A stretch of 48,973 nt of DNA from a virus (Duplodnaviria; Caudoviricetes), in IMG/VR virus record IMGVR_UViG_3300025875_000774, positions 1 to 48,973 of that record. One strand, 5' to 3'. Position numbers and translations under genes: made by a program. Within the stretch, counting starts at the first letter, position 1. Each line of letters opens with the position of its first letter. Below, piece by piece: positions 1,603 to 35,300 of the stretch. A model generated the notes under the pieces. The model did not search any database. It was not told the DNA's origin and saw nothing but the letters and a program-made list of their open reading frames with translations.

Positions 1603-2027
1603 GCTCCCGCGCCAGACTCCTCGCCGGGAACGTCTGCGCCCGTGGGGTCGATGGGCTTGGCGGCCACCAGGTGCGGGGCGTCGAAAGCGGGCTCCTCGCC
1701 GAAGTGACGCATGGCGTCGCGCTCCTCGAGCAGCTTCTCGCGCAGCGCCTCGACGAGCTGCAGGGGCGTCAGGTCCTCGGCGCGCGCAGTGACGACCGTG
1801 ACGCCCGCCTCGTCCTGGCTCAGGAAGCCTGCGGCGATGAGCCCTTCGAGCGGGCTGCGCCTGTAGGCGCGGGCGAGGGTGACCACCTGCTTGGGCGACG
1901 GTGCCTGCTTGCCGCTGCTCCAGCGGCTCACCGTCGAGGCGTCGATGCCTGTGGCGGTTGCGACGTCTTTCTGCTGCGCGCGGTCGCTGATCATCTCGAC
2001 GTAGTCCCACCACGGGTTCCCTCTCAT
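1599..2027 (-). CDS. Immunity repressor, XRE-type HTH
   Basis: QKDVATATGIDASTVSRW HTH; upstream of ImmA, divergent from Cro-like gene; probable leaderless ATG at 2027. Confidence 0.88.
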   Translation of the reverse strand: MRGNPWWDYVEMISDRAQQKDVATATGIDASTVSRWSSGKQAPSPKQVVTLARAYRRSPLEGLIAAGFLSQDEAGVTVVTARAEDLTPLQLVEALREKLLEERDAMRHFGEEPAFDAPHLVAAKPIDPTGADVPGEESGAGA

Positions 2028-2033
2028 GCCCGC

Positions 2034-2062
2034 ACCGTACTTGCGCCAACGCAAGCGGTCGA
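2034..2062 (-). promoter_or_regulatory. Leftward repressor promoter TCGACC-N17-TACGGT, leaderless
   Basis: -10 hexamer ends 6 nt before ATG 2027; 17-bp spacer. Confidence 0.6.
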
Positions 2063-2110
2063 GACCGCCTAGCCCAAATGGGTGTCCGCAACCTGCTTGC
2101 GTCACCGCAT
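2041..2110. promoter_or_regulatory. Operators TTGCG-N4-CGCAW (2041-2054, 2097-2110; degenerate 2078-2091)
   Basis: Palindromes TTGCGCCAACGCAA and TTGCGTCACCGCAT overlap both divergent promoters. Confidence 0.7.
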
Positions 2111-2125
2111 CACCCTCTGTAGGTT
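2097..2125 (+). promoter_or_regulatory. Rightward early lytic promoter TTGCGT-N17-TAGGTT
   Basis: SigA-like hexamers with 17-bp spacing upstream of Cro-like gene. Confidence 0.65.
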
Positions 2126-2175
2126 CATCCGTGTGGCCGCGCACACCGCGTGCGAGCACACAAGAGGGGGTGAGC

Positions 2176-2436
2176 GTGCAGACCATCCAGATCCGCCCCG
2201 AACGCCTCGCGTCTCTGCGGCGGCTCCACGACCTTCGTACCCAGCGATCCCTGGCCGAGGCCCTGCGCATCAACGAGGCGACCGTCAGCCGCGTCCTGGC
2301 CGACCAGGCAGCGCCCGGCACGTCCTTCATCGCCGCCGCGCTGCGGACCTTCGACGTCCCGTTCGAGTACCTTTTCGAGGCCGTGGACCAGTCCCCGGCC
2401 GACGAGGTGGCCCTGCCCACGGCGGTGTCGGCATGA
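2176..2436 (+). CDS. Cro-like HTH regulator
   Basis: TQRSLAEALRINEATVSRV HTH; GAGGGG RBS; divergent from repressor. Confidence 0.82.
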   Translation: MQTIQIRPERLASLRRLHDLRTQRSLAEALRINEATVSRVLADQAAPGTSFIAAALRTFDVPFEYLFEAVDQSPADEVALPTAVSA

Positions 2437-2672
2437 GCCTCGCCGGCGAGGAGACCGAGCCCTACACCCCGGAGTACGCCGCAACGCGACTCAAGGTCGA
2501 GGTCGAGTGGCTCAAGAAGCAGGCCGCCAAGGGCGCGGTCCCCAGCATCAAGCTCGGCCGGCGTCGGATGTTCATGGAGTCCGACATCCAGCAGATCCTC
2601 ACCAACGCCGCGTGTGCGCGGCGCACCGGACTCAGCGTCGGGTCCCTGCGGGCGAAGAGGCGGGCCTCATGA
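2433..2672 (+). CDS. Excisionase-like HTH protein
   Basis: YTPEYAATRLKV...VPSIKLGRRRMF winged-HTH pattern; ATGA overlap. Confidence 0.7.
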   Translation: MSLAGEETEPYTPEYAATRLKVEVEWLKKQAAKGAVPSIKLGRRRMFMESDIQQILTNAACARRTGLSVGSLRAKRRAS

Positions 2673-3088
2673 CGCCGCACTGGCTGGACGGGCGCGAGGT
2701 GGTGTATCGGGTCTTCGGCCCGGGCGGCACCTGCCTCTACGTGGGCCAGTCCTCACGCCTGTCGCGGCGGCTTGAAACGCACCGTCTGCAGGCGCCGTGG
2801 GCCCCTGCCGGAGCGCGGATCCGCGTCACCGTGCACCCGAGCCGAGTTGAGGCTCGCCGGGTTGAGACGGCCGAGATCAGGCGCCTGCGCCCTCGCTGGA
2901 ACATCAGTGGCCGGCCGCCCCGCGTCGACTGGACGGCCTGCGACTACCTCGAGGTGATCGAGGCCCTGCCGCACACCTTGAACGGCAGCCCCCATCTAGC
3001 TGGCAACCGGCCGCATCGTCTTCGTCGAGAGCTCAGTAGCCGGTACCCCGAGATCGCGCGGGCCGCCTACGGAGCGGAGGCCGCATGA
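2669..3088 (+). CDS. GIY-YIG nuclease family protein
   Basis: VVYR...LYVGQS..L.RR..H...E...I....P..N. Confidence 0.75.
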   Translation: MTPHWLDGREVVYRVFGPGGTCLYVGQSSRLSRRLETHRLQAPWAPAGARIRVTVHPSRVEARRVETAEIRRLRPRWNISGRPPRVDWTACDYLEVIEALPHTLNGSPHLAGNRPHRLRRELSSRYPEIARAAYGAEAA

Positions 3089-3288
3089 CCCCCACCCTCG
3101 TCGCCCTCCTGGTCGCCATCGCCGGCGGCTGGCTCGCCACCGCGACCGCCTTCGCCCTGCTCCTGAACCGCTGGATGAACGCGTGCGAGGAGTGCGAGGA
3201 GCGGGGCGCGGACTTCCGCGCCTGGGAGGCCGAGGTGTCCCCGCCGCTGGCGCAGCGCCTGTTCGGCGCCGACCGCGCCACTGACTGA
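3085..3288 (+). CDS. Small membrane protein
   Basis: N-terminal hydrophobic helix; coupled start. Confidence 0.6.
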   Translation: MTPTLVALLVAIAGGWLATATAFALLLNRWMNACEECEERGADFRAWEAEVSPPLAQRLFGADRATD

Positions 3289-10895: not shown

Positions 10896-11132
10896 TCAGG
10901 ACTGCGCGGACGGCCCCGAGTCGGTCGGGGGCTCTGCGGGTCGCTCAGCGGCCTTGCGGGGGCGCGACGGCCGTTCGGGCAGCTTGGCGCCCGGTTCGCG
11001 CAGGTACCAGCGCATGAACGCACGCAGGGCGGTCGACCTGTCCACGCCGCTGGGCAGGGCCGCGCCGAAGGCGTCCCAGAGGTCACGCGCGATGCGCACG
11101 GCCTGTCGTTCGGTGCCTCGGCTGGGCGCCAC
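10896..11132 (-). CDS. Ribbon-helix-helix DNA-binding protein
   Basis: TERQAVRIARDLWDAF...DRSTALRAFMRWY; GGAGG RBS. Confidence 0.75.
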   Translation of the reverse strand: MAPSRGTERQAVRIARDLWDAFGAALPSGVDRSTALRAFMRWYLREPGAKLPERPSRPRKAAERPAEPPTDSGPSAQS

Positions 11133-11144
11133 CTTGCCTCCAAC

Positions 11145-11215
11145 GTGTCTCGACACGCCAAGCCTACTCAGGCTTGCAGTGTCTCGACACCCTCGGCTAG
11201 CGTGTGTCTCGACAC
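11145..11215. promoter_or_regulatory. Three identical GTGTCTCGACAC operators around promoter TTGCAG-N18-TAGCGT
   Basis: Exact copies at 11145, 11179 and 11204 in the divergent intergenic gap. Confidence 0.75.
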
Positions 11216-11239
11216 CGCGACCCGAATGGAGCAGTCCCT

Positions 11240-12029
11240 ATGCGCTCGATCCACCAGCCCGCTGCCCTCGCCACCGCGGCCGCCGGCTTTGTCGGCTCCG
11301 TCGTCGAGGCCGGCCGCGCGCCCGACGTCGTGCAGCTCGCCGACCTCGGCCCCCTCGCCCCGTGGGCGGCCCTGGCCCTCGTCGGATCGCGGGCGTTCGA
11401 CCGCCTCCGTGCCCGCGCCGTCGCGTCCCCCGGGCGGCCGGCCACCGACGCGCCCAAGCCCCGCGGCCGCCGCCGCGCGGGCGTCCCGATCAACGCCTGA
11501 CCCGAGTTCGACCGAGAGGACGCAGCGATGAGCGCCGAGACCGTCGAGACCTTCAAGCCAGGGGACGGCGTGGTCTACCGGCCGCACGACAACGCGCCCG
11601 CCGAGGACGGCACCGTCGTCCGCGCCAGCAGCGCGGGTGTCTTCGTCCGCTACCACGGCAGCGGGACGCCGAAGCTGACGCGCGCCGGCGACCTCGCTCA
11701 CGTTTTCCCCGAGCCCACCGCATGACCGCCACCCTCTTCCTCGCCCCCACCTTCGACCCGTGGGTCGACGCCCCCGACGCGGGTGTCCACCCCGACGACC
11801 TGCCCGACACGTGGGCGTCCGAGCCGCTGCCCGTGGAGACGTGCGTGTACGACCCCGAGGACGCGGCGGGCGACTGCCTGCGGGCCTGCCCGAAGCACCT
11901 CGACGCCGTCGACTGCGAGACCCAGCGATGACCGCCCTCCTGGCCCGCCTGCTGTCGCCCCGCCACGAGCCGTACGCCGAGCACGAGCAGGCGCGGCTGG
12001 CCCGCATCGACACCGGAGGCACCCGATGA
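11240..12029 (+). CDS. Four small hypothetical genes (11240-11500, 11528-11725, 11722-11931, 11928-12029)
   Basis: RBSs and ATGA coupling. Confidence 0.55.
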
Positions 12030-20228: not shown

Positions 20229-21853
20229 GCTGGGGCGGCCCGCTGTTCGACGGCCACGTCCCGTCCCTGGGCTACGAGGTGCTCGACTGGATCCATGAGT
20301 TCGAGGTGCACGGCCCGGGTGACGTCCAGGGCGAGGCCCTGGACTACGACGACGAGATGCGCGAGTTCCTCATCGAGGCGTACCGCATCGACCCGAAGAC
20401 GGGCCGCCGCGTCTACGACGAGGGCGTGCTGTCCCGGGCGAAGGGGCGCGCCAAGAGCGAGACCGCCGGCCACATCGCGGTCGCGGAGGCGTTCGGCCCG
20501 GTGCGCTTCGACGGCTGGAGTGCCGAGGGGCAGCCGGTTGGTCGCCCGGTGGTGTCCCCGCTCATCAAGTGCCTCGCGACCGAGGAGTCGCAGGCGGGCA
20601 ACACGTTCGAGAACGTGGCGTTCATCGCCGGCGAATGGGGCCCAGACGCCTTCCCGGAAGTCTTCGGTGGCGTCAGCGGCATCCGGCAGTACCAGTCGGC
20701 GACGGCGATCTACCTGCCGCACGGTGGGGAGATCCGGGCCTGCACCGCGGGCAGCGCCTCGAAGGATGGCGGCAAGGAGACATTCGTCGTCGCCGACGAG
20801 ACGCACCTGTACGTGCTGCGCGAGCTCAAGAACATGTACGGCACGGTGCGGCGCAACCTGGGTAAGCGGATGGGTTCCCAGCCCTGGATGCTGCAGACTT
20901 CGACGGCGTACCGCCCCGGCGAGCAGTCCATCTTCGAGGAGACGCTGACCGCCTGGCGCAAGGGCGAGCTCGCGTCGACGATCCTGGTGGACCACCGCGA
21001 AGCCAAGGGTCGCATCGACATCACCGACGAGCCGCACACCATGGCGCAGCTGCGGCAGGTGTACGGCGCCGCTGCGGGGTGGATGGATCTGCCGCGGCTG
21101 TACCGGGAGATGTGTGACCCGCGTTCGTGCCCGGATGAGGCGACGGCGGCCCGCTACTTCCTGAATCGGCCGATGAGCACAGTGGACGCCTGGATCGCCA
21201 AGGACGTCCATGCCCGCCAGGACGTCAGTGCCGAGCCGGCCGAGGGCGATGACCGCCCGCGCCCGTCCGCGGTGGTGGATCCTGGTGAGCCGATCACGCT
21301 CGGCTTCGACGGCAGCCTCAACGACGACACGACGGTTCTGCGGGGCTGCCGCATGTCGGATGGGTTCCTGTTCCGGATCGGTGCGTGGCCGAAGCCGGAG
21401 GGTGCTGCTGGCATCGGCTGGGAGGTCCCGCGCTCGGATGTCCTGGCGACGATTCGTGAGGCGTTCGGGCGCTACGACGTGGTCCGCGGCTACTTCGACC
21501 CGCACGAGTGGCGCAGCGACATCGACGCCCTGGCCGAGGAGTTCGGCGACCGCGTCATCTCCTGGGAGACGCGCCGCGAGGTGGCGATGGGCGCGGCGCT
21601 GGACCGCCTTCACACGGGCTTCGTGACGGGCGAGATCTGGCACGACGCGGACCCGCTGGCCGCAGAGCACTACGGCAACGTCTACGTGCGCCGCAAGGGC
21701 CAGCACCGGCTGGTCCGCAAGGAGAACCCCAACAGCGCCCGCAAGATCGACTCCGTGGTCGGCGACGCGCTCGCCCTCGAGGCTCGCGCCGACGCCATGG
21801 CGGCCGGCTGGGGCGCGAAGTCCGACACCAGGGTCATCATCTTTCGACGGTAG
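20225..21853 (+). CDS. Terminase large subunit
   Basis: RAKGRAKS Walker A, VVADETH Walker B, LGFDGS and KIDS nuclease motifs. Confidence 0.93.
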   Translation: MSWGGPLFDGHVPSLGYEVLDWIHEFEVHGPGDVQGEALDYDDEMREFLIEAYRIDPKTGRRVYDEGVLSRAKGRAKSETAGHIAVAEAFGPVRFDGWSAEGQPVGRPVVSPLIKCLATEESQAGNTFENVAFIAGEWGPDAFPEVFGGVSGIRQYQSATAIYLPHGGEIRACTAGSASKDGGKETFVVADETHLYVLRELKNMYGTVRRNLGKRMGSQPWMLQTSTAYRPGEQSIFEETLTAWRKGELASTILVDHREAKGRIDITDEPHTMAQLRQVYGAAAGWMDLPRLYREMCDPRSCPDEATAARYFLNRPMSTVDAWIAKDVHARQDVSAEPAEGDDRPRPSAVVDPGEPITLGFDGSLNDDTTVLRGCRMSDGFLFRIGAWPKPEGAAGIGWEVPRSDVLATIREAFGRYDVVRGYFDPHEWRSDIDALAEEFGDRVISWETRREVAMGAALDRLHTGFVTGEIWHDADPLAAEHYGNVYVRRKGQHRLVRKENPNSARKIDSVVGDALALEARADAMAAGWGAKSDTRVIIFRR

Positions 21854-21865
21854 GGGGTGGCCGTC

Positions 21866-23287
21866 GTGGCGCTGTCCGACGACGAGGCGGCGACCTTCAA
21901 TCGGCTGTCGGGGCAGATGGGTCGCGACCGGAACCCGCTCCTGGCCCTGGATGCCTACTACGAGGGCATCCACCGACTGGAGACCCTGGGGCTTGCGGTC
22001 CCGCCCGAGCTTGAGCGATTCATCACGACGGTGAACTGGCCGCGGATCACCGTGGACTCTGTCGAGCAGCGGTGCGACATCGAAGGCTTCCGCCTCGCCG
22101 GCTCGGACGACCTGGACGACGACCTGTGGGCGATCTGGCAGGCGAACGGCCTGGACGAGGAGTCCCAGCAGGCCCACCTGGACGCCATGATCTTCGGGCG
22201 GTCCTACATCTGCATCGGGTCGCGGTCCCCCGAGGACCCGGACCCAGACATGCCCCTGGTGACGGTGGAGTCCCCGCTCGAGGTGACCCATGAGATCGAC
22301 CCACGCACCCGGTGGGTGAGCGCGGCGCTGCGCAAGACGCGCACGCTGCAGGGCCAGGGGCCGACGGCGGAGTACGCGACGCTGTACCTGCCGAACGAGA
22401 CGATCTGGCTGGAGCGCTCGGGTTCGACCCGCGGCTGGGCCGAGGTTGACCGCGACGAGCACAGGCTTGGCCGGGTTCCGGTGGTGCCGCTGGTGAACCG
22501 GTCCCGGCTCAAGCGCCGGTACGGGCTGAGCGAGATGGCGGACGTCATCTCACTCACGGACGCGGCGTGCCGGGCACTGACGAACGCGCAGGTCGCGACC
22601 GAGGTGCTGGCGGTGCCTCAGCGGTACGTGCTGGGGGCTGCGCCGAAGGACTTCGTCGACCAGGACGGGAACCCGGTCACGCAGTGGGAGACGTACTTCG
22701 GCGCAGTGTGGGCGCTGCAGAACAACGACGCCAAGGTCGGGCAGTTCGATGCCGCTGACCTCAAGAACTTCGAGACCATCGTGAACCACTACGCGAACCT
22801 CGCCAGTGGCGTCTCGGGGCTGCCGACGCGGTTCTACGGGCAGTACACGACGAACCCTCCGACCGAGGGCAGCATCGTCGCGGACGAAACGCGCCTGATC
22901 ATGAACGCCTACCGCAAGCACCGGACCCTCGGTGGCTCGTGGGAACTGGGCAACCGGTTCGTGCGCCGGATCATCGACGGTGTGTGGCGCCCGGAGCTGG
23001 CGCGCATGGAGACGGTGTGGCGTAACCCGGAGACCCCGACGCGCGCGCAGCAGGCGGACGCGGTGACGAAGCTCGCGTCGGTCCAGGTGAACGGCAAGTA
23101 CCTGATGCCGCTGGAGATGGCTCGCGAGGAGCTCGGCTGGTCGCGGGCGAAGCGGGAGCGGGCCCGGCAGTACGACGAGGAGTCGGCTGAGTCCGATCCG
23201 GCCGTGACGGCGGTCCGGCAGGCCACGCGGACGTTGACCGACTTGACGTCTCCGAGCGAGCCGGTCCGGGCCGATGCCCCTGCCTGA
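21866..23287 (+). CDS. Portal protein (SPP1 gp6-like)
   Basis: YYEG, NWPRITVD, VPVVPLVNR motifs; synteny. Confidence 0.9.
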   Translation: MALSDDEAATFNRLSGQMGRDRNPLLALDAYYEGIHRLETLGLAVPPELERFITTVNWPRITVDSVEQRCDIEGFRLAGSDDLDDDLWAIWQANGLDEESQQAHLDAMIFGRSYICIGSRSPEDPDPDMPLVTVESPLEVTHEIDPRTRWVSAALRKTRTLQGQGPTAEYATLYLPNETIWLERSGSTRGWAEVDRDEHRLGRVPVVPLVNRSRLKRRYGLSEMADVISLTDAACRALTNAQVATEVLAVPQRYVLGAAPKDFVDQDGNPVTQWETYFGAVWALQNNDAKVGQFDAADLKNFETIVNHYANLASGVSGLPTRFYGQYTTNPPTEGSIVADETRLIMNAYRKHRTLGGSWELGNRFVRRIIDGVWRPELARMETVWRNPETPTRAQQADAVTKLASVQVNGKYLMPLEMAREELGWSRAKRERARQYDEESAESDPAVTAVRQATRTLTDLTSPSEPVRADAPA

Positions 23288-24191
23288 GGCCGCGGCCTCG
23301 CACTACCGGCAGGTTCAGCGGGTGCAGCTGGTCACGATGGCGGCCGCTACTGCCGCGTGGGGCCGGATGGGTCCGGACTTCGATGCCTCGTGGCGCACGG
23401 TGGGACCACTGCTCGTCGGTCTGGTGGGCGCCGCACAGGGCGCCGCGGCCCGCTCGGGTGCTGCGTACGTGCCGGCTGCGCTCGAGCAGCAGGGCGTGGC
23501 CGTGGACGCGCTGGCGGAGGTTGCGCCGGAGGCGTTCGCGGGCGTCGCCTCGGATGGGCGCCCGTTGGACTCCCTGCTGTACGGGGCGGTGACGACGTCG
23601 AAGGCAGCGTCGGTCGGCACGGTGGCCCCGGAGCGGGCGCTGTCTGCCGGTGCGGCGTGGCTGGAGATGGCGGTCCGCACGCAGGTGACGGACGCCGGCC
23701 GTGCTGCAGCGTCGGTGGCGGTGGCGGCTCGCCCTCGGGTGGGCTGGACGCGGGCAGTGAACCCGCCGTGCTGCACCCGCTGCGCGATCCTGGCGGGCAA
23801 GTGGTTCCGCTTCAACGACGGCTTCCTGCGTCACCCCCGCTGCGACTGTTTCCACTTGCCGTGCGTGGAGTCCGGGCTTGGCGAGGTCGCCACGGATCCG
23901 GCGCGACTGTTCTCCGAGGGTCGCGTCACGGGGCTCCGCGCAGCGCAACGCCAGGCGGTTGCCGACGGCGCCGACCCACTCCAGGTCGTGAACGCCGACC
24001 GGGGCCGATCGGCCGGCGGCATGTACACGCTCGAGGGCACGACGAAGCGCGGTGTCGCCAACCGGGCGCGCCGCGCCGCGGGCCTGGCGCGAGCGAACAC
24101 CCGCCCCACGGTGGATGCGATCTACCGCTACGCGAGCGACCGCGAGGACGCCCTGACGCTGCTGCGCCAGAACGGCTACCTCGCCCCCTAG
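23274..24191 (+). CDS. MuF-like minor capsid / head maturation protein
   Basis: CCTRCAILAG...RHPRCDC; follows portal. Confidence 0.78.
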   Translation: MPLPEAAASHYRQVQRVQLVTMAAATAAWGRMGPDFDASWRTVGPLLVGLVGAAQGAAARSGAAYVPAALEQQGVAVDALAEVAPEAFAGVASDGRPLDSLLYGAVTTSKAASVGTVAPERALSAGAAWLEMAVRTQVTDAGRAAASVAVAARPRVGWTRAVNPPCCTRCAILAGKWFRFNDGFLRHPRCDCFHLPCVESGLGEVATDPARLFSEGRVTGLRAAQRQAVADGADPLQVVNADRGRSAGGMYTLEGTTKRGVANRARRAAGLARANTRPTVDAIYRYASDREDALTLLRQNGYLAP

Positions 24192-24219
24192 TTGTAGTGG
24201 GTCATGACCTTGTTGACGG

Positions 24220-25275
24220 TCAGACGTCGAAGAGGGACCACTCGGGCTCGGTCTCGGGCAGCGCGATCACCTGAGACTCGACCCGGGGCCCGACCACGAG
24301 GGTCCGGCTGATCGGAGGCCGGTAGCCGAGCGCCGAGTGGGGCCGCTCGTGGTTGTAGTAGTTCAGAAACTCCGCCAGAGCCTCGGTCCGCTCGGCCTCG
24401 CTGGCGTAGGCGCGGCGGCGCAGCCACTCCTTCGACATCGTCTGGTTGTAGCGCTCGACCTTCCCGTTGGTCTTCGGTGAGTAGGGCCGGGTCCGCTTGT
24501 GCACCGTACCGGTCTCTTCGAGTGCGGCGGCGAATGCGCGTGAGCGGTAGCAGGAGCCGTTGTCAGTCAGGCACCGGCGGATGCTCTCGATGCCGAAGTC
24601 GCCAAAGAACAGCGCTGAGCGGAGCCAGAAGTCGGCGGCCGTGACGCCCTTCTCGTCTTCGAGGACCTCGGTGTAGGCCAGGCGCGAGTAGTCGTCGACG
24701 GCGCTGTGCAGGTAAGCGTTGCCGATCCGTCCGGTTCCGCTGCCCTTCCGCTTTGACGCCTTGTGCTGCTCCGACCCCTGGCCGTGAACGGCCCACCCGC
24801 CACCGGCGGGGATCTTCCCGACCTTCTTGATGTCGACGTGGATCATCTCGCCGGGCGCCTGGTGCTCGTAGCGGATGACGCGGGCGAGTTCCCCAGTGGG
24901 CGGGTCCATGTCCCGGACGCGGCTGATGCCGTGGCGGGCGAGGGTGCGCTGGACGGTGGCGTCGGAGACCTCGATGCCCACGCTGTTCAGGTGCGCGGCG
25001 ATCCGCGCCTTGCCCCACTTCTCGGCCCGGCGCAGTTCCAGGATGGCGGTCACGACGTCGTCCTCGATGGCCGATGGGGAGCGCGCTGGCCGCGAGGAGC
25101 GGTCTTCTAGGCCGACCTCGCCGAACCGCTGCCAGCGGGCGTACCACTTGCTCAGCGTGGCGCGCGAGACCCCGGACTCGGCCGCGACGTGGGCGATGGG
25201 GCGCCCGCCGTCGATCCGCAGACACAGGCGTCGCCGACCCTCGGGACTGAGGGGCGCGTTCCGGTGTCCAGCCAG
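24220..25275 (-). CDS. IS481-family DDE transposase (apparent CTG start)
   Basis: HRNAPLSPEGRRRLC N-terminus; HVDIKK, LTDNG, NGKVERYN catalytic motifs. Confidence 0.92.
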   Translation of the reverse strand: MAGHRNAPLSPEGRRRLCLRIDGGRPIAHVAAESGVSRATLSKWYARWQRFGEVGLEDRSSRPARSPSAIEDDVVTAILELRRAEKWGKARIAAHLNSVGIEVSDATVQRTLARHGISRVRDMDPPTGELARVIRYEHQAPGEMIHVDIKKVGKIPAGGGWAVHGQGSEQHKASKRKGSGTGRIGNAYLHSAVDDYSRLAYTEVLEDEKGVTAADFWLRSALFFGDFGIESIRRCLTDNGSCYRSRAFAAALEETGTVHKRTRPYSPKTNGKVERYNQTMSKEWLRRRAYASEAERTEALAEFLNYYNHERPHSALGYRPPISRTLVVGPRVESQVIALPETEPEWSLFDV

Positions 25276-25295
25276 GTCACGACCTTCGCTAGTGC

Positions 25296-25333
25296 TTGCT
25301 TAGTTAGCACCGAAACGCTAACATAGTGAGCAC
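25296..25333 (+). promoter_or_regulatory. Passenger-operon promoter TTGCTT-N17-TAACAT with GTTAGC-N8-GCTAAC dyad
   Basis: Hexamer spacing; palindrome 25303-25322; GTTAGCAC/GTGAGCAC repeats. Confidence 0.6.
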
Positions 25334-25349
25334 CGACGAAGGAGTGAGC

Positions 25350-25523
25350 ATGGACAAGGAACTGAGCCTGGCGACCCGCAAACTGATGGTGCGGATGGAG
25401 TTGGCCAACCGGTGCCGCCTCTACCTGGAGGCATGGGACAACACCAGCGTCGACGACCAGATCGTTGCGGACCTGGCTGCCGTCGCGCAGGTCGCAGTGG
25501 CCGTTGACCAGCAGGGATCCTGA
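25350..25523 (+). CDS. IS passenger 1, hypothetical
   Basis: AAGGAG RBS. Confidence 0.65.
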   Translation: MDKELSLATRKLMVRMELANRCRLYLEAWDNTSVDDQIVADLAAVAQVAVAVDQQGS

Positions 25524-25918
25524 TGAGCGAAGCCAGTGACCGGGAGGCAGGGGCTCGCGCCCTCCGCGCCGCCGCTGACGCTTGGGATGCGGCCGAGCCC
25601 GGCGACCTGCTGTACGGCGAGACGGGCGTCGACTGGCTCCGCGACCGCGCTGACCGCCTGGCCTCCGAGCCGACGGACGAGCGCCAGTGCCGGGAGTGCG
25701 GCGACGCGGTCCAGTACCTGTCCAGCCGCGACCTCTGCGATGGGTGCGAGGCCGAAGCGTCCGCGCACGCGCCCGGGGCGGCAGGCACCTGCGCCACCTA
25801 CCCGGACTGTGTCGCACCGGACAACGACCAGCCGCTGCACGAGCACCAGGCCCCTGACTTCTGGTGCGACAAGTGCGAGCAGGCAGGCGCTCACGCCACC
25901 GACTGCGAGGACTTCTGA
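25523..25918 (+). CDS. IS passenger 2, multi-Cys Zn-binding protein
   Basis: CREC..CDGC, C..C, CDKC..H...C; TGATG coupling. Confidence 0.65.
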   Translation: MSEASDREAGARALRAAADAWDAAEPGDLLYGETGVDWLRDRADRLASEPTDERQCRECGDAVQYLSSRDLCDGCEAEASAHAPGAAGTCATYPDCVAPDNDQPLHEHQAPDFWCDKCEQAGAHATDCEDF

Positions 25919-26169
25919 TGACGAACCTCAATCCATCCGGCGTCCGTCGTGCGCCCGACAACGTCAATGCGCCAGAGGGCCGCGCCGCGTGGGCGCTGCC
26001 GTGGCAACCGATTGAGTCCGGGCGGCGAGCCGCGCTTCTCGCATGCCCCGGCTGTGGCGCAGCGGTACCGCCGAGCAACATCGAGGCTCACGTGGACTGG
26101 CACAGGCAGCAGTGGGACACGATCCTCACCATTGCCCTGGGCGGCCGGAAGCGCTGGTGGCAGCGGTGA
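25918..26169 (+). CDS. IS passenger 3, C2H2-type finger protein
   Basis: CPGC...HVDWH; TGATG coupling. Confidence 0.6.
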   Translation: MTNLNPSGVRRAPDNVNAPEGRAAWALPWQPIESGRRAALLACPGCGAAVPPSNIEAHVDWHRQQWDTILTIALGGRKRWWQR

Positions 26170-26405
26170 CCGGACGAGCGCAAGGCCACATCGAAAACAC
26201 GCCCGAGCAGGTTCGCGCTTGGACCCTCGGCTGGGAAGCCGGGCGTGAGCAAGGCAGGCAGGAGGCGCTCGAAGAAGCGGCCACGCAGATGGACGCCCTG
26301 GCGGCAGATCGGGCCCTGCCCCTGGCCGTCCGGCAAGCGTTCACCTCGGCCGCCGCCGGGCTCCGTGACGTTGGCCGCCGCTTGGCCCAGAAGGCGACTC
26401 CGTGA
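26166..26405 (+). CDS. IS passenger 4, helical hypothetical
   Basis: GTGA coupling. Confidence 0.55.
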   Translation: MTGRAQGHIENTPEQVRAWTLGWEAGREQGRQEALEEAATQMDALAADRALPLAVRQAFTSAAAGLRDVGRRLAQKATP

Positions 26406-26572
26406 GCGAGGCGCTGTTCGACCTCATCACCGTCCACTGCTTCTTCGTCGCCCGATGCCAGCACACGGAGCAGGCCGCCGACGCACGGTCAGCGCACGAC
26501 GCGATGGAGCGGCACTACTTCACCCAGCACCGCGCGGAGATCAGCCGGATGGTCGGCGGATGGTGGACATGA
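26402..26572 (+). CDS. IS passenger 5, Cys/His protein
   Basis: HCFFVARCQH...MERHY..QH; GTGA coupling. Confidence 0.55.
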   Translation: MSEALFDLITVHCFFVARCQHTEQAADARSAHDAMERHYFTQHRAEISRMVGGWWT

Positions 26573-26630
26573 CGCCAGGACTTGACGGGAGGTATGCCCG
26601 GCCATGAGTACAGCCGCTAACGTGCTTAGC

Positions 26631-26843
26631 GTGCCCCTGGACCCGCAACTCGCGAGAGACCTCGCAGCAGCGGCCAAGCGGCTCGACGAGTGGCGCACCA
26701 AGCGCGACGACCTGATCTGGGACGCCCACGAGAAGGGCGCCAGCCTCCGCGAGATCGCGGCCCGCGTCGGCATGAGCAACCCCGGCGTCCTGTCAGTCCT
26801 GCGCCGCGAGGCAGCCCGGCGACACGTCGAGCCCGAGTCCTGA
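26631..26843 (+). CDS. IS passenger HTH regulator (alternative start 26604)
   Basis: GASLREIAARVGMSNPGVLSVL HTH; TAACGT 7 nt before GTG suggests a leaderless transcript. Confidence 0.72.
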   Translation: MPLDPQLARDLAAAAKRLDEWRTKRDDLIWDAHEKGASLREIAARVGMSNPGVLSVLRREAARRHVEPES

Positions 26844-26886
26844 GGTGTCAACAACCTCATGACCCAGCACACCTAGTTGTCCCGGA

Positions 26887-26968
26887 CCCGCAACGGGGCC
26901 GGACCGATCCCGCAACGGGAGCAGCACATGAGCGAGCCCACCCCCGCGCCGACCCCGCCCGCAACGGG
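26887..26968 (+). repeat. Three CCCGCAACGGG mini-hairpins around scaffold start
   Basis: Exact copies at 26887, 26909 and 26958. Confidence 0.7.
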
Positions 26969-27425
26969 CGACCCTTCGGCGCCGGATCCCAAGCCCACCG
27001 ACACGGTGGACTTCTGGAAGCAGCAGGCCCGCACCAACGAGGCCCGCGCCAAGGAGAACGCCCAGAAGGCGAAGGACTACGACGCCTACGTGGAGTCGCA
27101 GAAGACCGAGCAGCAGCGGCTCGCCGACCAGGTGGCCGCCAGCCAGCGCGAGGTCGAAGTGGCGCGCTCAGACGCCCTGCGCTTCCGCATCGCCGCCAAG
27201 CACCGACTGTCCGAGGACGACCTGGACCTGCTGGGCACCGGCACCGAGGAGCAGCTCGAGGCCCGCGCGACCCGCATCGCGGCGCTGTCCGCGGCTTCGG
27301 CCGCCCCTCCCGCTCCGCGCCCGGACCCCTCACAGGGTGCGCGTGCCGGCACGCCGACCGGCGGCAGCGCCGACGGCAAGGCCGAGGCCCTGCGCCGCTT
27401 CGGCGACAGGGCCGGCAAGAACTGA
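26928..27425 (+). CDS. Scaffolding protein
   Basis: WK..AR..E.RAKEN coiled coil, PRPDPSQG; synteny. Confidence 0.82.
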   Translation: MSEPTPAPTPPATGDPSAPDPKPTDTVDFWKQQARTNEARAKENAQKAKDYDAYVESQKTEQQRLADQVAASQREVEVARSDALRFRIAAKHRLSEDDLDLLGTGTEEQLEARATRIAALSAASAAPPAPRPDPSQGARAGTPTGGSADGKAEALRRFGDRAGKN

Positions 27426-27472
27426 TCCAGCGGATCGGACCCCCCGACCGCTCCACCTGAGAGAGGAAGACC

Positions 27473-27853
27473 ATGACTGACATCTCCGTCAGCACCGTGG
27501 GCTACCAGGCAGAGAAGCGGTCGTGGCTCCTGAGCCCGCACGGCACCGAGCCTGGCACCAACCCCGGCATCACCATCGACGCGTCCCTGTTCACCGCGGG
27601 CACGCACTACCCGAACGGCTACCTGCCGTCCGGGACCGTCATCGGCACCAACGGCGGCCCCTACTCGGGCAGCGGCGCTGCGGCCGGGATCCTCTTCGGC
27701 TCCCTGCGCATCCCGTCGGCGACCTCCAAGGTCGGTGGTGCGCTGGTCGTCCACGGGTTCGTGAAGACGGCACGCCTGCCGTTCCAGTCCGGCGCCGGGT
27801 CCCTCGGGGCCGGCGGCGCGGCGGCCCTTCCCCTCATCCACTTCACCGCCTGA
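27473..27853 (+). CDS. Head decoration protein
   Basis: HYPNGYLPSG...HGFV...LP; lies between scaffold and capsid. Confidence 0.72.
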   Translation: MTDISVSTVGYQAEKRSWLLSPHGTEPGTNPGITIDASLFTAGTHYPNGYLPSGTVIGTNGGPYSGSGAAAGILFGSLRIPSATSKVGGALVVHGFVKTARLPFQSGAGSLGAGGAAALPLIHFTA

Positions 27854-27870
27854 GCCGGAAGGACTGACTC

Positions 27871-28902
27871 ATGGCCATCGTCTTCGACGGTCCCGTCACC
27901 CCCGACGCCCTGACCGCCTTCGTGCGGGACGTCCCCTCCCCTTCCGACCAGGTGCTGAACCTGCTCCTGCCGGACCGCGTGCTCAACCGCAACACGGTCG
28001 ACCTGTCGGAGCTGACCCGCACCAACCGCACGGCCCGCTTCCGCGCCTTCGACGCGCGTCTGCACGTGTCCGAGCGCAACGCGGTCACCACCAAGCAGGT
28101 CAAGCTGCCCCCGCTTTCGTCGTCCCTGAGCGTTGGTGAGCTGGAGCGCCTTCAGCTGGAGTTCGCCCGCCTGGGCGGCACGAACAACAGCGCGATCGTG
28201 GACGCGATCTACGACGACGCCACGAACCTCACCCTCGAGGTGCGGGCCCGCATGGAGCAGGCCCGCGGCGACGTCCTCACCGACGGCAAGTTCACGCTCG
28301 CCGGCGAGGGCAACCTGACGATGGAGGCCGACTTCGGCGTCCCGGCGGGGCACATCGTGACGGCGGCGACGCCGTGGTCGACAATCGCCTCGGCGACGAT
28401 CATCGCGGACCTGACGTCATGGGTGAACACCTACGTCGCCAGCAACGGCTCGCGCCCCACGGGCATGGTGATCTCCACCCGCGTCCTGAACTACATGCTG
28501 CAGAACGCGGAGATCCGCACCCTGTCGGCGTCGCTGGTGGGCGCCCCCGGCCTGGTGACCCGCCCGGCCCTGGACGCGGCGCTGGCCGCGTACGGGCTGC
28601 CGCCGGTCACCCTGGTCTACGACTCGGCGGTCGACGTAGATGGCGTGACCACCCGCGTCATCCCCGACGACCGGGTGATCATCCACGGCGACAACGTCGG
28701 CTACACGGCGTGGGGCGTGACCGCGACGGGCCTGGAGCTCGTCAACGCCGCGCAGACGGACCTGTCGTTCTCCGACGCCCCCGGCATCGTGGGGGTCGTC
28801 ATCAAGGAGGGCCCCCCGTTCCGACAGTTCACGTTCGTGGACGCCGTCGGCATGCCGGTGCTGGAGAACCCGCGCCGCCTGTTCGTGGCGGACGTCGCGT
28901 GA
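27871..28902 (+). CDS. Major capsid protein (lambda gpE-like family)
   Basis: ARFRAFD..LPPLS..DFGVPA..MPVL; synteny. Confidence 0.88.
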   Translation: MAIVFDGPVTPDALTAFVRDVPSPSDQVLNLLLPDRVLNRNTVDLSELTRTNRTARFRAFDARLHVSERNAVTTKQVKLPPLSSSLSVGELERLQLEFARLGGTNNSAIVDAIYDDATNLTLEVRARMEQARGDVLTDGKFTLAGEGNLTMEADFGVPAGHIVTAATPWSTIASATIIADLTSWVNTYVASNGSRPTGMVISTRVLNYMLQNAEIRTLSASLVGAPGLVTRPALDAALAAYGLPPVTLVYDSAVDVDGVTTRVIPDDRVIIHGDNVGYTAWGVTATGLELVNAAQTDLSFSDAPGIVGVVIKEGPPFRQFTFVDAVGMPVLENPRRLFVADVA

Positions 28903-31872: not shown

Positions 31873-32036
31873 ACCTCCCCCTGCCGCTCTACCTGTCCTT
31901 CTGCCTCGCCCAGTTGAGCGACAACTGGGGCGAGGAGGAGTGGGACAACTGGCGCGAGGCGGCGGGTGCGGGTGTTCGTGGCCCGGTGGAGACGGATGAG
32001 TTCGACTCCTTGGCGGGTGACGTCGTTACGGCCTAG
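31686..32036 (+). CDS. Tail assembly chaperone -1 frameshift extension (GT)
   Basis: G GGT TTC (X XXY YYZ) at 31686-31692 leads into the open -1 frame ending at 32036. Confidence 0.7.
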   Translation, partial: GFPYQAAASLASVAVEEYAWLEGKWVAAGCPGAAGARGGTRGRGAERAGAPGGCEPRPPRLLDLPLPLYLSFCLAQLSDNWGEEEWDNWREAAGAGVRGPVETDEFDSLAGDVVTA

Positions 32037-32269
32037 CCATCGAGCGCGTCTGCAATGACGTTCCCGGCGATCTCCTCAAGGTCGGCGTCGGAGACGCCCT
32101 CGCACTCCTCGGGCCGCTCCCCTTCTGCGGCGCTGGGCTCGGACATGGACTCCGAGAACTGCTCGCGCATGGCGTCCTCGCAGGCCGCTAGGTCGGGTTC
32201 GCTCGAGCATCCGGCCAGGAGCGTCGCGGACATCAGGCAGGCGGCGGCGAGGGCTGCAGTGCGCTTCAT
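32033..32269 (-). CDS. Lipoprotein moron (possible superinfection exclusion)
   Basis: MKR + hydrophobic stretch + LAGC lipobox; acidic mature part; antisense to late operon. Confidence 0.75.
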   Translation of the reverse strand: MKRTAALAAACLMSATLLAGCSSEPDLAACEDAMREQFSESMSEPSAAEGERPEECEGVSDADLEEIAGNVIADALDG

Positions 32270-32322
32270 TCCCGGACCGTAGCGCCGCCCGTGCGCAGAA
32301 CCCATAGCCGAGGGGGTGGAAC

Positions 32323-35300
32323 GTGGCCCTGATCGGCACCGCTTTCGTGGAGGTCCGCCCCGACACCAAGAACTTCTCCAAGGACGTCGAGGGTGGGCTC
32401 GCGCCGGCCCTGAAGAAGGCCGCCGCCCTGGCGGGGGCGATTTTCGCCTCCGCGAAGGTCGGCAGCTTCCTCAAGGACTCCGTCTCCCAGGCGTCTGACC
32501 TGAACGAGACGCTGAGCAAGTCCCAGAACATCTTCGGGGCCAACGCCGCGGACATCGAGAAGTGGTCGCGCACCTCGGCGAAGGCGTTTGGGCTGTCGCA
32601 GTCGGCGGCACTTGGGGCGGCCGCGCAGTACGGCAACATGTTTCAGCAGCTCGGGTTCACAGGCGAGGCCGCCGCCACGGCCTCCAAGGGTCTGATCCAG
32701 ACGGCTGCGGACCTCGGCTCGTTCAACAACGTCGACCCCTCCGATGTGCTGGAGCGGATCGGCGGGGCGCTGCGCGGGGAGTACGACAGCCTGCAGGCGC
32801 TGATCCCCAACATCAACGCCGCTCGCGTCGAGCAAGAAGCCATGGCGATGACCGGCAAGACCGTCGCCAAGGAGCTCACTGCACAGGAGAAGGCGACCGC
32901 CACCCTTGCGATCATCCAACGCGATGGCGCGGCGGCGGCCGGGGATTTCGCGGAGACCTCCGCCGGCCTGGCGAACCAGCAGCGCATCGCTGGCGCCCAG
33001 GTCGCAGACCTCAAGGCGAAGATCGGCGACCTGCTCCTGCCGACGATGACCGCCTTGGCTGGGGTCGTCACGGGCAGCGTCCTCCCGGCGCTGTCCGGGA
33101 TGGTCGACCGGTACGGGCCTGCGGCGGCGGACATGTTCACGCGTATCGGCGTTGGCGCGCAAGGGCTGTTCGACTTGCTCGTCAAGGGCGACTTCAACGG
33201 CAAGCTCACCGAGGCGTTCGGCTGGACCGAGGACTCGGGCGCGGTCGACTTTCTGTTCGATCTACGCGAAGGCCTGATCGGCGTCTACGACATCCTCGCC
33301 AAGGGCGACTTCTCCGGGCCGATCTTCGGCATGGAGGAAGACTCCGCGTTCGTTGACTTCCTGTTCACCGTCCGCGAGACGGTCCTAGGCATCGACTTCT
33401 CCGGGCTCATCCAGGGTGCCCGAGACTTCTTCGCCTCCGGAGACGGCGAGCAGCTGTCGGCGTCCTTCGGGTCGATCTTTGAGTCGACCCAGGCGCTACT
33501 CCCGGCCGTGCAGGCGTTCATCTCCCAGATGCCGTCCCTGAGCGTGACCACTGGCGCTGCGGCGACCGTCCTCGGGTTCTTCGCCGAGCACGTCGACACG
33601 CTCGTCCAGTTCATGCCGCTGCTGGTGGGGGCGTTCATCGCCTTCAAGGTGGCGCAGGCCGCATCCAACCTCGCCGCCGCTGCCGCGGTTCCGCTGCGCA
33701 TCGCCGAGATCGTGTCCAACCAGCGACACACGGCCGCCCTGTCGGCGAACACTGCGGCGCTGGCGCTGAACAGCGGGGCGACGACCGTCGGCACCGCCGC
33801 CACGGCGGGAGCCACGGCCGCGGAGAACACGAGCCTCCTGACCCGCCTGCGCGCCACGACGGCAACGATCGCCAGCACCGTCGCGCAGGGCGCCGCCTCT
33901 GCGGCGACGACCGTCTGGACGGGCGCGCAGTGGCTGCTGAACGCGGCCTTGACCGCGAACCCCATCGGCCTGGTCATCGCGGCGGTCGCGGCCCTGGTCG
34001 CCGGCGTGATCATCGCCTACAAGAACAGTGAGACGTTCCGCGACATTGTCCAGGGCACATGGCGGGCCATCCAGTCCGCGGCGCAGACCGCTTGGAATGA
34101 CTACCTCAAGCCGGTCCTCGTCAACCTCGTCGTTGCGGTCATCGACGCGTGGCGCCGCTTTGAGGAGATGCGGGACCGCTTGGCGGCCGTCTGGACTGCG
34201 GTGCAGGCCGCCGCGCGGGCGGGCATCCAGGCGGTGATCGACAAGTTCCTCGAGATGGTCGGCAAGGTCATTCAGGGCGCGGCTGACGCATTCGGCTGGG
34301 TTCCCGGCCTGGGCGACAGGCTCAAGACCGCTGCCGATAAGTTCAGCAAGTTCCGCGACGACGTCAACGGCGCCCTCGGGGGCATCCGGGACCGCGACGT
34401 CAGGATCACGGCGCAGCTAGACGAGGCTGCGTCGTACCTGGTGAAGCAGGGCGTGAATCCGTCTGAGGCGGCGGCGCGGGTGCGCAAGCAGTTCTGGTCC
34501 GGCGGCTACACCGGCGATGGCGGGAAGTTCGAGCCGAAGGGCGTCGTCCATGGTGGGGAGTTCGTCTTCCCCAAGGAGGCCGTCCAGCGGTTGGGCGTGA
34601 AGAACCTCGCCAGCCTCGCCGGCTTGCCGGGTTACGCCCGCGGTGGCCTCGTTGGTTCGGCCTCGGTGCCGGACCCGGCGATCTTCCGCGACCTCGCGGC
34701 GCAGATGAACGCAGGGTCGCAGGCGCTGGCGACTGGGTGGCAGGGAGCGGTCAGTGATCTCGCCAAGTCGGTGAACACGGCCGCCGCCCGCAGCCTGGAG
34801 GGGTCCGGCACCTTCACCGGCACCACCGGTCGCGCCCCCTCGGGCAGCATCGTGGCTCTCGGCCGTTACCTGCAGAGTCTGGGTGCGCGCGTCTCGGAGC
34901 ACCCGGCGTTCGGTGGCGTGCACCCGGTCCACAAGGGTCGCGGGCACTACGAGGGCCGGGCGATCGACGTGAACTACGGGCCCGGTGGAGAGAACGCCAC
35001 CGAGAAGTCGTTCTTCGACCGCATCGCCGGGTCGCTCAAGGCGCAGGGCTTCAAGGTGCTGTGGCGGGTCCCTGGCCACTTCAACCACCTGCACGCGGAG
35101 TCTTTCGACTCCGGCGGCATCGCCCGTGGTATCGGGTCCATGCCGAAGAACACCATCAAGCCGGAGCGGGTCCTTTCCCCACGCCAGACGGAGTCCTTCG
35201 ACCGGCTCGTGGAGGTTCTGGAGCGACAGGGCTCCGGCCCGGCGGGAGGTGGCCGTCAGCTCGTGATGCACAACTACGGCACCCGCGAGGAAGACCTGGC

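Follow-up and report, generated by a model that had tools for sequence, protein, structure and literature searches.

The element and its cargo

The stretch of DNA analysed here (the window) is one virus record of 48,973 bases, IMGVR_UViG_3300025875_000774, with a GC content of about 70%. Between a protease/MuF-like gene and a scaffold gene, it contains an insertion sequence (IS) element of the IS481 family, 2,679 bp long, which carries a transposase gene, five small open reading frames (ORFs) and a gene for a small helix-turn-helix (HTH) protein. The features of the element are listed below, with the evidence for each in brackets.

24187–24192, no strand: left copy of the target duplication CCTAGT (sequence)
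24193–24217, no strand: terminal inverted repeat, right (IRR), at the transposase 3′ end, 25 bp, starting with TGT (sequence)
24220–25275, minus: IS481-family DDE transposase, 351 amino acids (aa) plus stop (NF033577, 325 bits; Pfam rve and LZ_Tnp_IS481)
25294–25308, minus: operator-like palindrome 1, 18 nucleotides (nt) before the transposase CTG, with a weak −10-like TAACTA on the transposase strand (sequence; putative role)
25317–25331, plus: operator-like palindrome 2, overlapping the −10-like TAACAT of a predicted cargo promoter and followed by the ribosome site AAGGAG (sequence; putative role)
25350–25523, plus: cargo ORF1, 57 aa, no family (family libraries)
25523–25918, plus: cargo ORF2, 131 aa, acidic (net charge −20), three CxxC (DZR, E 0.025, under the cut-off)
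25918–26169, plus: cargo ORF3, 83 aa, with a single predicted zinc finger of C2H2/UBZ-like type (zf_UBZ, E 3e-4, under the cut-off)
26166–26405, plus: cargo ORF4, 79 aa, no credible family (family libraries)
26402–26572, plus: cargo ORF5, 56 aa, Cys/His-rich, no family (family libraries)
26616–26630, plus: operator-like palindrome 3, overlapping the −10-like TAACGT and directly 5′ of GTG 26631 (sequence)
26631–26843, plus: small HTH protein, 70 aa, predicted repressor (profile and homologue searches; 45% identical to the terminal HTH protein of the related element L031)
26847–26871, no strand: terminal inverted repeat, left (IRL), distal to the transposase (sequence)
26872–26877, no strand: right copy of the target duplication CCTAGT (sequence)

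The terminal repeats, TGTAGTGGGTCATGACCTTGTTGAC (24193–24217) and the reverse complement of TGTGCTGGGTCATGAGGTTGTTGAC (26847–26871), are identical at 21 of 25 bases; they begin with TGT and finish with ACA, and the pair stands out, the next best match in the window having 8 mismatches. Throughout, the ‘left end’ of an element is IRL, distal to the transposase, which in the window lies at 26847–26871. The flanking 6-bp duplication CCTAGT is perfect and of the NCTAGN type; most IS481 members generate 6-bp duplications (PMC10045372; this and the other papers cited are represented here by portions of their text). As in the published definition of a transporter IS (tIS; PMC11891212), passengers, here six ORFs, are enclosed by one pair of IS ends with no internal end. 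The transposase frame, which runs uninterrupted on the minus strand between 25275 and 24220, scores 325 bits against the NCBIfam IS481 model NF033577 (cut-off 224), and its D/D/E blocks are invariant in an alignment of 36 sequences. ATG, GTG and TTG are absent in frame at the homologous start, and the CTG at 25275, behind GAAGG, is the likely start codon; L031 has a CTG at the same place. A 6,812-base contig from a public run, possibly the source of the window, covers 21487–28298 with zero differences and at a depth of 41, equal to that of the flanks, so that the element is not an assembly chimera. From its ends, its duplication and its intact transposase, we regard it as virtually certain that a real cargo-carrying IS481 element lies at this locus. 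The initial annotation had described such an element, bounded over 2,679 bp by inverted repeats and CCTAGT, with a transposase that occupies the left part and starts mid-element, and each of these points holds. That the element has become fixed and domesticated in the phage, the transposase no longer being made and the cassette alone mattering, is highly improbable: the missing ATG, GTG or TTG start, the degenerate tail motif described below and the single copy at flank depth would suit it, but the transposase has kept its frame and catalytic blocks, the two copies of the duplication are identical and the CTG recurs in L031.

The five cargo ORFs, all on the plus strand and divergent from the transposase, are chained by stop-to-start overlaps, and 3 bp separate the end of the HTH gene from the inner edge of the repeat. 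This gene likely starts at GTG 26631 rather than at ATG 26604, and would then be leaderless and uncoupled from ORF5; the translational coupling first proposed holds for the five ORFs and probably not for the HTH gene. The three ORFs with Cys/His motifs were correctly recognised: ORF2 has three CxxC, ORF3 one CxxC and then HxxxH, and ORF5 2 Cys and 5 His with no CxxC. The cargo frames are intact, with a GC content at third codon positions (GC3) of 0.78–0.89. Searches of the cargo proteins returned little. ORF2 found only itself in the protein search and nothing at 0.9 in the atlas search; the structural model of ORF3 is weak (predicted local distance difference test, pLDDT, 62) and its fold search gave no match at E ≤ 0.001; ORF1, ORF4 and ORF5 were searched against the family libraries, the window and the fetched loci. 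None of the five matches an Acr protein in Pfam, PHROGs or NCBIfam, and none has a credible defence or toxin match in PADLOC, Pfam or NCBIfam; ORF4 gave a short, partial match to BilD (E 6e-4). The proposal that the passengers resemble phage early genes found no support, with PHROGs matches for none of the five ORFs; what they match instead is the plan of an accessory cassette, as set out below.

Predicted operators, relatives and free cassettes

Three 15-bp palindromes stand before the transposase, the cargo and the HTH gene, at three predicted promoters. When up to 2 mismatches are allowed, the pattern GCTAAC-N3-GTTAGC has three matches in the 49 kb, against a chance mean of 0.35, and all three are within the element. 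L031 has a perfect GGTAAC-N3-GTTACC (6-3-6) between cargo and transposase, likewise with a weak TAACTA toward the transposase. Word-based searches with the HTH protein returned only the protein itself; among 84 short HTH homologues, 9 show a translated trace of this motif directly before the conserved start, with 0 in a control stretch. In the related elements with a ribbon-helix-helix (RHH) regulator, copies of TGTCATGACA precede the transposase start, their ends lying 11 nt (L002), 11 nt (L094), 20 nt (L017) and 72 nt (L030) from it, and a copy lies just 5′ of the RHH gene in L002 and L017. From this arrangement, autorepression of the cassette is very probable, and co-repression of the transposase by the same regulator is, on balance, somewhat favoured. 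The self-regulation suggested initially thereby gains support from the three palindromes. The repeat core GTCATGAC was considered as an RHH operator and rejected, TnRErm46 having the same core (PMC6794481). Elsewhere, in a phage tail region, an HTH homologue (L182, 199–375) has a perfect 6-3-6 palindrome of another sequence upstream.

We scanned viral, genome and metagenome collections (for the metagenomes, 11 of 64 parts, with the best 80 of 555 kept) and obtained 108 loci with a transposase match. Paired ends were present at 66; the 42 loci without them were excluded from the count. Of the 66, 59 are plain elements of 1,032–1,120 bp whose transposases reach no more than 58% identity with that of the window, and the 7 remaining, long rows come down to 4 distinct elements, namely the one in the window, L031, L002 and L017. 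Two of the unpaired loci, L030 and L094, are partial and begin a divergent cargo gene, and mycobacterial plasmids supplied two further complete elements, L111 and L112. The complete elements measure 2,679 bp (window), 2,064 bp (L031), 3,007 bp (L002), 2,214 bp (L017), 1,972 bp (L111) and 2,501 bp (L112), and all six have exact 6-bp NCTAGN duplications, in line with the target type initially ascribed to IS481 and reported for TnRErm46 (PMC6794481). A quick maximum-likelihood tree of 121 rows places all 8 transposases that have cargo on one side of a branch (Shimodaira–Hasegawa-like approximate likelihood ratio test, SH-aLRT, 87), together with 53 context-less homologues and L033; the 59 plain elements, some of whose rows are near-copies, lie opposite. 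The ends of L033, like those of L028, could not be delimited, and L188, on a Streptomyces plasmid, is a truncated remnant without ends.

Regulators excepted, no cargo is shared between any two members. Five of the eight carry a DNA-modifying gene (an N4/N6 methyltransferase in L002 and L030, a C5 enzyme in L094, Dam in L112 and a Mom-like/XF1762 gene in L111), while the window, L031 and L017 have small ORFs only. Cargo and transposase diverge in 6 of the 8. Of the six complete elements, four have the regulator as the gene closest to the left end (HTH in the window and L031, RHH in L017, and RHH-like, by reading of the sequence, in L112), and in L002 it is next to last. Within the ends of the relatives, no nuclease gene was recognised. 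The initial annotation had anticipated other copies with the same ends, variable cargo and a conserved terminal HTH gene; variable phage-type cargo and a small terminal regulator do recur, but that regulator is HTH or RHH and is invisible in L111. As side observations, the Mom-like (L111, 3241–3891) and Dam (L112, 2883–3887) passengers both finish in a small CGNR-like zinc-finger tail, of which L033 has a similar, broken copy upstream of its transposase; a long inverted duplication just left of the L111 element (1838–3100) may be a rearrangement or an assembly feature.

These cargo data bear on whether the passengers might serve the lysogen or the element itself, as an HTH-silenced toxin–antitoxin-like addiction module or an anti-phage/exclusion unit. 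Toxin–antitoxin operons also consist of small coupled ORFs with an autorepressor. We consider such a role quite improbable: this shared layout and weak matches of the RHH profile to the antitoxins VapB26 and MazE6 speak for it; against it, none of the five ORFs gave a credible hit to a defence or toxin family in PADLOC, Pfam or NCBIfam, and the relatives hold methyltransferases or a Mom-like gene, with no recognised nuclease within their ends.

The transposase tails also separate the branch. They are about 20 residues longer than those of plain relatives; the window's runs 38 aa past the last conserved block and terminates in EWSLFDV. Under a relaxed pattern, a QMSIF/QLSF-like motif occurs at the end of the tail in all six other full cargo transposases, in 75 of the 119 top homologues and in none of 58 plain ones. 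The published consensus of the beta-clamp motif, Q-L-S-L-F/L or Q-L-x-L-F, is located in the flexible C-terminal tail of transposases (PMC3971601, PMC4549789) and is similar to the ends of this branch, the window copy lacking the Q; the text portions of these papers considered here do not name IS481 as a carrier, and supplementary table S5 may list it. By analogy, and tentatively, the clamp-motif-like tail may direct insertion to replicating DNA. In plain relatives, the frame, with a tail of 15–25 residues, appears to cross the right repeat, whereas branch transposases stop before it.

Among sampled genomes (the samples overlap, and the best 5 candidates per genome were scored), 6 of 401 at class level match the transposase at E ≤ 1e-84, none above 53% identity; none of 401 at phylum level does so at E ≤ 1e-105, and none of 391 of one family matches P0056 at E ≤ 1e-115. 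In the genomes searched, no further member of the lineage was found. In GenBank phages, no transposase exceeds 46%. Two complete relatives reside on plasmids, which removes the notion of a phage-specific lineage. Enrichment in phages and plasmids is not claimed here, since viral and plasmid collections were chosen, plain IS481 copies also occur in viral contigs, and context-less proteins from Streptomyces and other genomes sit on the branch.

The same cassette plan is found without a transposase. Paired TGTCATGACA copies occur in 63 viral loci (L117–L179), and a transposase with ends in just one of these, the contig of L002 itself. An RHH protein of this family accompanies the pair in 34 of the 40 high-GC loci and in none of the 23 low-GC ones. 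The profile was seeded with 11 of the 34; without the seeds, one duplicate and the L002 contig, the count is 21 of 27. In high-GC viral contigs, the pair is the mark of a widespread group of cassettes under predicted RHH control. Several free loci run from operator through cargo to RHH gene. In Rhodococcus phage Mbo4, a methyltransferase and an RHH gene stand under their own repeats with no transposase, and L183 combines a promoter with small Cys-rich ORFs and a homologue of the HTH protein, and has no IS ends. The window itself holds a transposase-free cassette at 10896–11500, with a minus-strand RHH gene, a divergently oriented ORF of at most 98 aa and the window's only copies of GTGTCTCGACAC, at 11145, 11179 and 11204 (spanning 11145–11215). 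Because cassettes spread more widely without a transposase, we take the direction of capture to be from cassette into IS, and we infer from these sequences that capture into the IS lineage took place on more than one occasion. An ATG within the TGTCATGACA palindrome is often the likely leaderless start.

Free cassettes are also the natural ground for a neutral hitch-hiking account, in which the transposase took upstream DNA, compact cassettes persist through their own promoter and repressor, and the transposase-side operator is a relic of a former divergent gene. In free cassettes, a third operator that faces a divergent gene is present already (L151; window 11145–11215), the cargo of the members is mutually unrelated, and the last operator of L030 ends 72 nt from the transposase start, all in its favour. 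Nevertheless, we judge it unlikely: none of the six complete branch members is plain; in four of them the regulator adjoins the left end, and a fifth has it in the penultimate position; in 5 of the 6 divergent members an operator lies 11–41 nt from the start of the transposase, and this holds for both of the unrelated regulator types, HTH and RHH; and the window's cargo keeps its frames and GC3.

Interpretation and known systems

The reading that we consider probable is that of an intact IS481 transporter IS with a likely captured, self-repressing phage accessory cassette, whose HTH protein is predicted to repress the cargo, itself and the transposase by way of the three copies of the 15-bp palindrome. 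By analogy with TnRErm46 and from knowledge of the family, the transposase would transfer the entire 2.7-kb element to CTAG sites as a single unit. When phage DNA enters a repressor-free cell, all three promoters would fire briefly, and this pulse would yield cargo proteins, HTH protein and a little transposase (CTG start, weak −10). The HTH protein would then shut all three promoters, by the same logic as in acr-aca operons.

Several points weigh against this interpretation. The operator pattern was derived from the same sequence in which it was counted, so that its significance is overstated, and 2 of 100 shuffles reached 3 matches. A consensus promoter scan of the window gave 0 sites, and because this strict scan was empty the promoters are predicted from their −10-like elements. 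Neither the HTH nor the RHH protein matches an Aca protein among solved structures, an acr gene is seen in no member of the lineage, and PHROGs, atlas, protein, family and fold searches returned no known relatives of the window's cargo proteins. The window tail has W in place of Q (EWSLF) and fails the tail-motif pattern. The SH-aLRT of 87 falls under the starred level, in a quick tree with 54 context-less rows on the branch, and elements beyond the branch can have cargo too (L187, carrying ArsR and a major facilitator superfamily (MFS) gene; TnRErm46). In L111 and L112 the cargo is on the transposase strand, and L111 shows no visible regulator. At the insertion site, phages with adjoining protease and scaffold genes are only 42–43% alike to the window's; no empty site was found in viral contigs, where the protease gene matched its own contig only, and neither the window nor the contigs of two runs have a second copy at another site. 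L187 (2754–6016, on a Streptomyces plasmid) has a plain-type tail and a frameshifted IS481 transposase behind ArsR, MFS and a hypothetical gene; its left end was found and its right end was not.

The class to which the element belongs, transporter IS481, is known; its new aspects are a phage cassette as cargo, an operator in front of the transposase and the lengthened tail. Besides the elements compared below, ISSav7 and ISKrh1 probably combine an IS481 transposase with a regulator. TnRErm46/ISRe46 of Rhodococcus equi is moved by an IS481 transposase with several passengers and a regulator, at an NCTAGN target (PMC6794481). Like the window's element, it has one IS481 transposase at one end with passengers and a regulator toward the other, an NCTAGN direct repeat, a GGGTCATGAC repeat core and a target TAG that is the stop of the upstream gene. 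It differs in its length of 6.9 kb, in its resistance, transport and TetR genes, and in a transposase that stops in the target TAG, whereas the window's stops before the repeat after a longer tail; the text portion considered describes no divergent, operator-sharing phage cassette (PMC6794481). ISArsp12, a 2,615-bp IS481 with ArsR and a permease, and ISPfr21 are also transporter IS and resemble the window in size (about 2.6 kb), in a CCTAGA repeat and in a regulator passenger, but their passengers are ArsR and a permease, against phage-type orphans or DNA-modifying enzymes here (PMC6305408). In other families, tIS with methyltransferases are known (PMC11891212). The architecture, taken initially as possibly undescribed, is therefore not new as far as an IS481 with several passengers and a regulator is concerned (PMC6794481, PMC6305408); for its combination with operator-sharing phage cassettes in one IS481 lineage, no description was found in the literature searched, which lay outside ISfinder and subscription papers.

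The cassette is built like an acr-aca operon. The acr-aca operons described in bioRxiv 10.64898/2026.07.27.740549, including that of the RHH-type Aca14, likewise have an inverted repeat over the promoter, small variable genes and a small repressor of HTH or RHH type, whose predicted control extends to adjacent operons. Of this layout, the window has the small co-encoded regulator and the palindromes over predicted promoters; a known anti-CRISPR gene is absent, and because there is neither an acr gene nor an Aca match among solved structures, the cassette is likened to such operons and not assigned to them. The idea that Aca10 is an RHH protein was rejected, Aca1–12 being listed as HTH in the preprint, and the portion of it considered describes no transposase under Aca control; its supplements could list these regulators. 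Methyltransferases and a Mom homologue are reported in acr-aca operons (same preprint), and orphan methyltransferases have been discussed as restriction protection (PMC11541004). Because five of the eight cargo-bearing elements hold an orphan methyltransferase or a Mom-like gene in this slot, the cargo pulse may serve counter-defence or DNA protection, which we regard as possible but short of probable. With such variable and often DNA-modifying cargo, the lineage may carry counter-defence genes between phages and plasmids.

A broader view, that this actinobacterial IS481 lineage is a shuttle for Aca-like counter-defence cassettes with a repressor-wired transposase, a clamp-binding tail and landing at CTAG stops, and that the window's five proteins are new anti-defence factors, is unlikely as it stands. 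If it were true, jumping and counter-defence would fire together on entry into a naive cell, and replicating phage or plasmid DNA would be targeted with its genes unbroken. Small-gene accessory cassettes swap between unrelated phages, and for the most part their route of movement lacks an explanation. In the present case the carrier is a transposase whose ends and target are defined, so that one route can be tested directly. If the repressor gates the transposase too, transposition would be linked to entry into a new host. The 70-aa HTH with GCTAAC-N3-GTTAGC and the RHH with TGTCATGACA are markers with which to mine candidate anti-defence genes in actinobacterial phages.

Phage setting and insertion site

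The window opens with a tyrosine-recombinase-like gene and has a head operon with terminase, portal, protease/MuF-like, scaffold, decoration and major capsid genes (PHROGs). Arthrobacter phages hold the nearest annotated relatives of this protease gene, at up to 44% identity. On account of the recombinase-like gene, the head operon and these relatives, the window appears to derive from a temperate actinophage. The genes on either side of the element are:

23274–24191, plus: head maturation protease/MuF-like gene (phrog_1522, E 1e-70; sequence)
26928–27425, plus: head scaffolding protein gene (phrog_2592, E 2e-19)

The TAG stop of the protease gene falls within the left CCTAGT copy, so that the insertion has kept this gene intact; without the element, 51 bp would separate the protease stop from the scaffold start. 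In phages Eileen and Faja, the scaffold gene follows the protease/MuF gene directly, with nothing between. Cargo genes at this site in related phages without the transposase, which would have spoken against a mobile unit, were not found. The search for empty-site relatives proposed initially thus yielded this adjacency and no true empty site (viral contigs, two runs); a joint skipping the element and a circle junction of its ends were both absent from the contigs of the two runs, of which one is maybe the source of the window and the other gave small pieces of the same phage. CTAG is scarce in the window, with 24 sites seen against 128 expected from base composition and 35 from shorter words.

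A scan found no terminator-like site between the HTH and scaffold genes (26843–26928); without one, cargo transcription could run into the head genes unless repressed. Further downstream, a lipoprotein-like small ORF (32033–32305, minus) lies on the opposite strand just before a long tail gene that starts at 32323.

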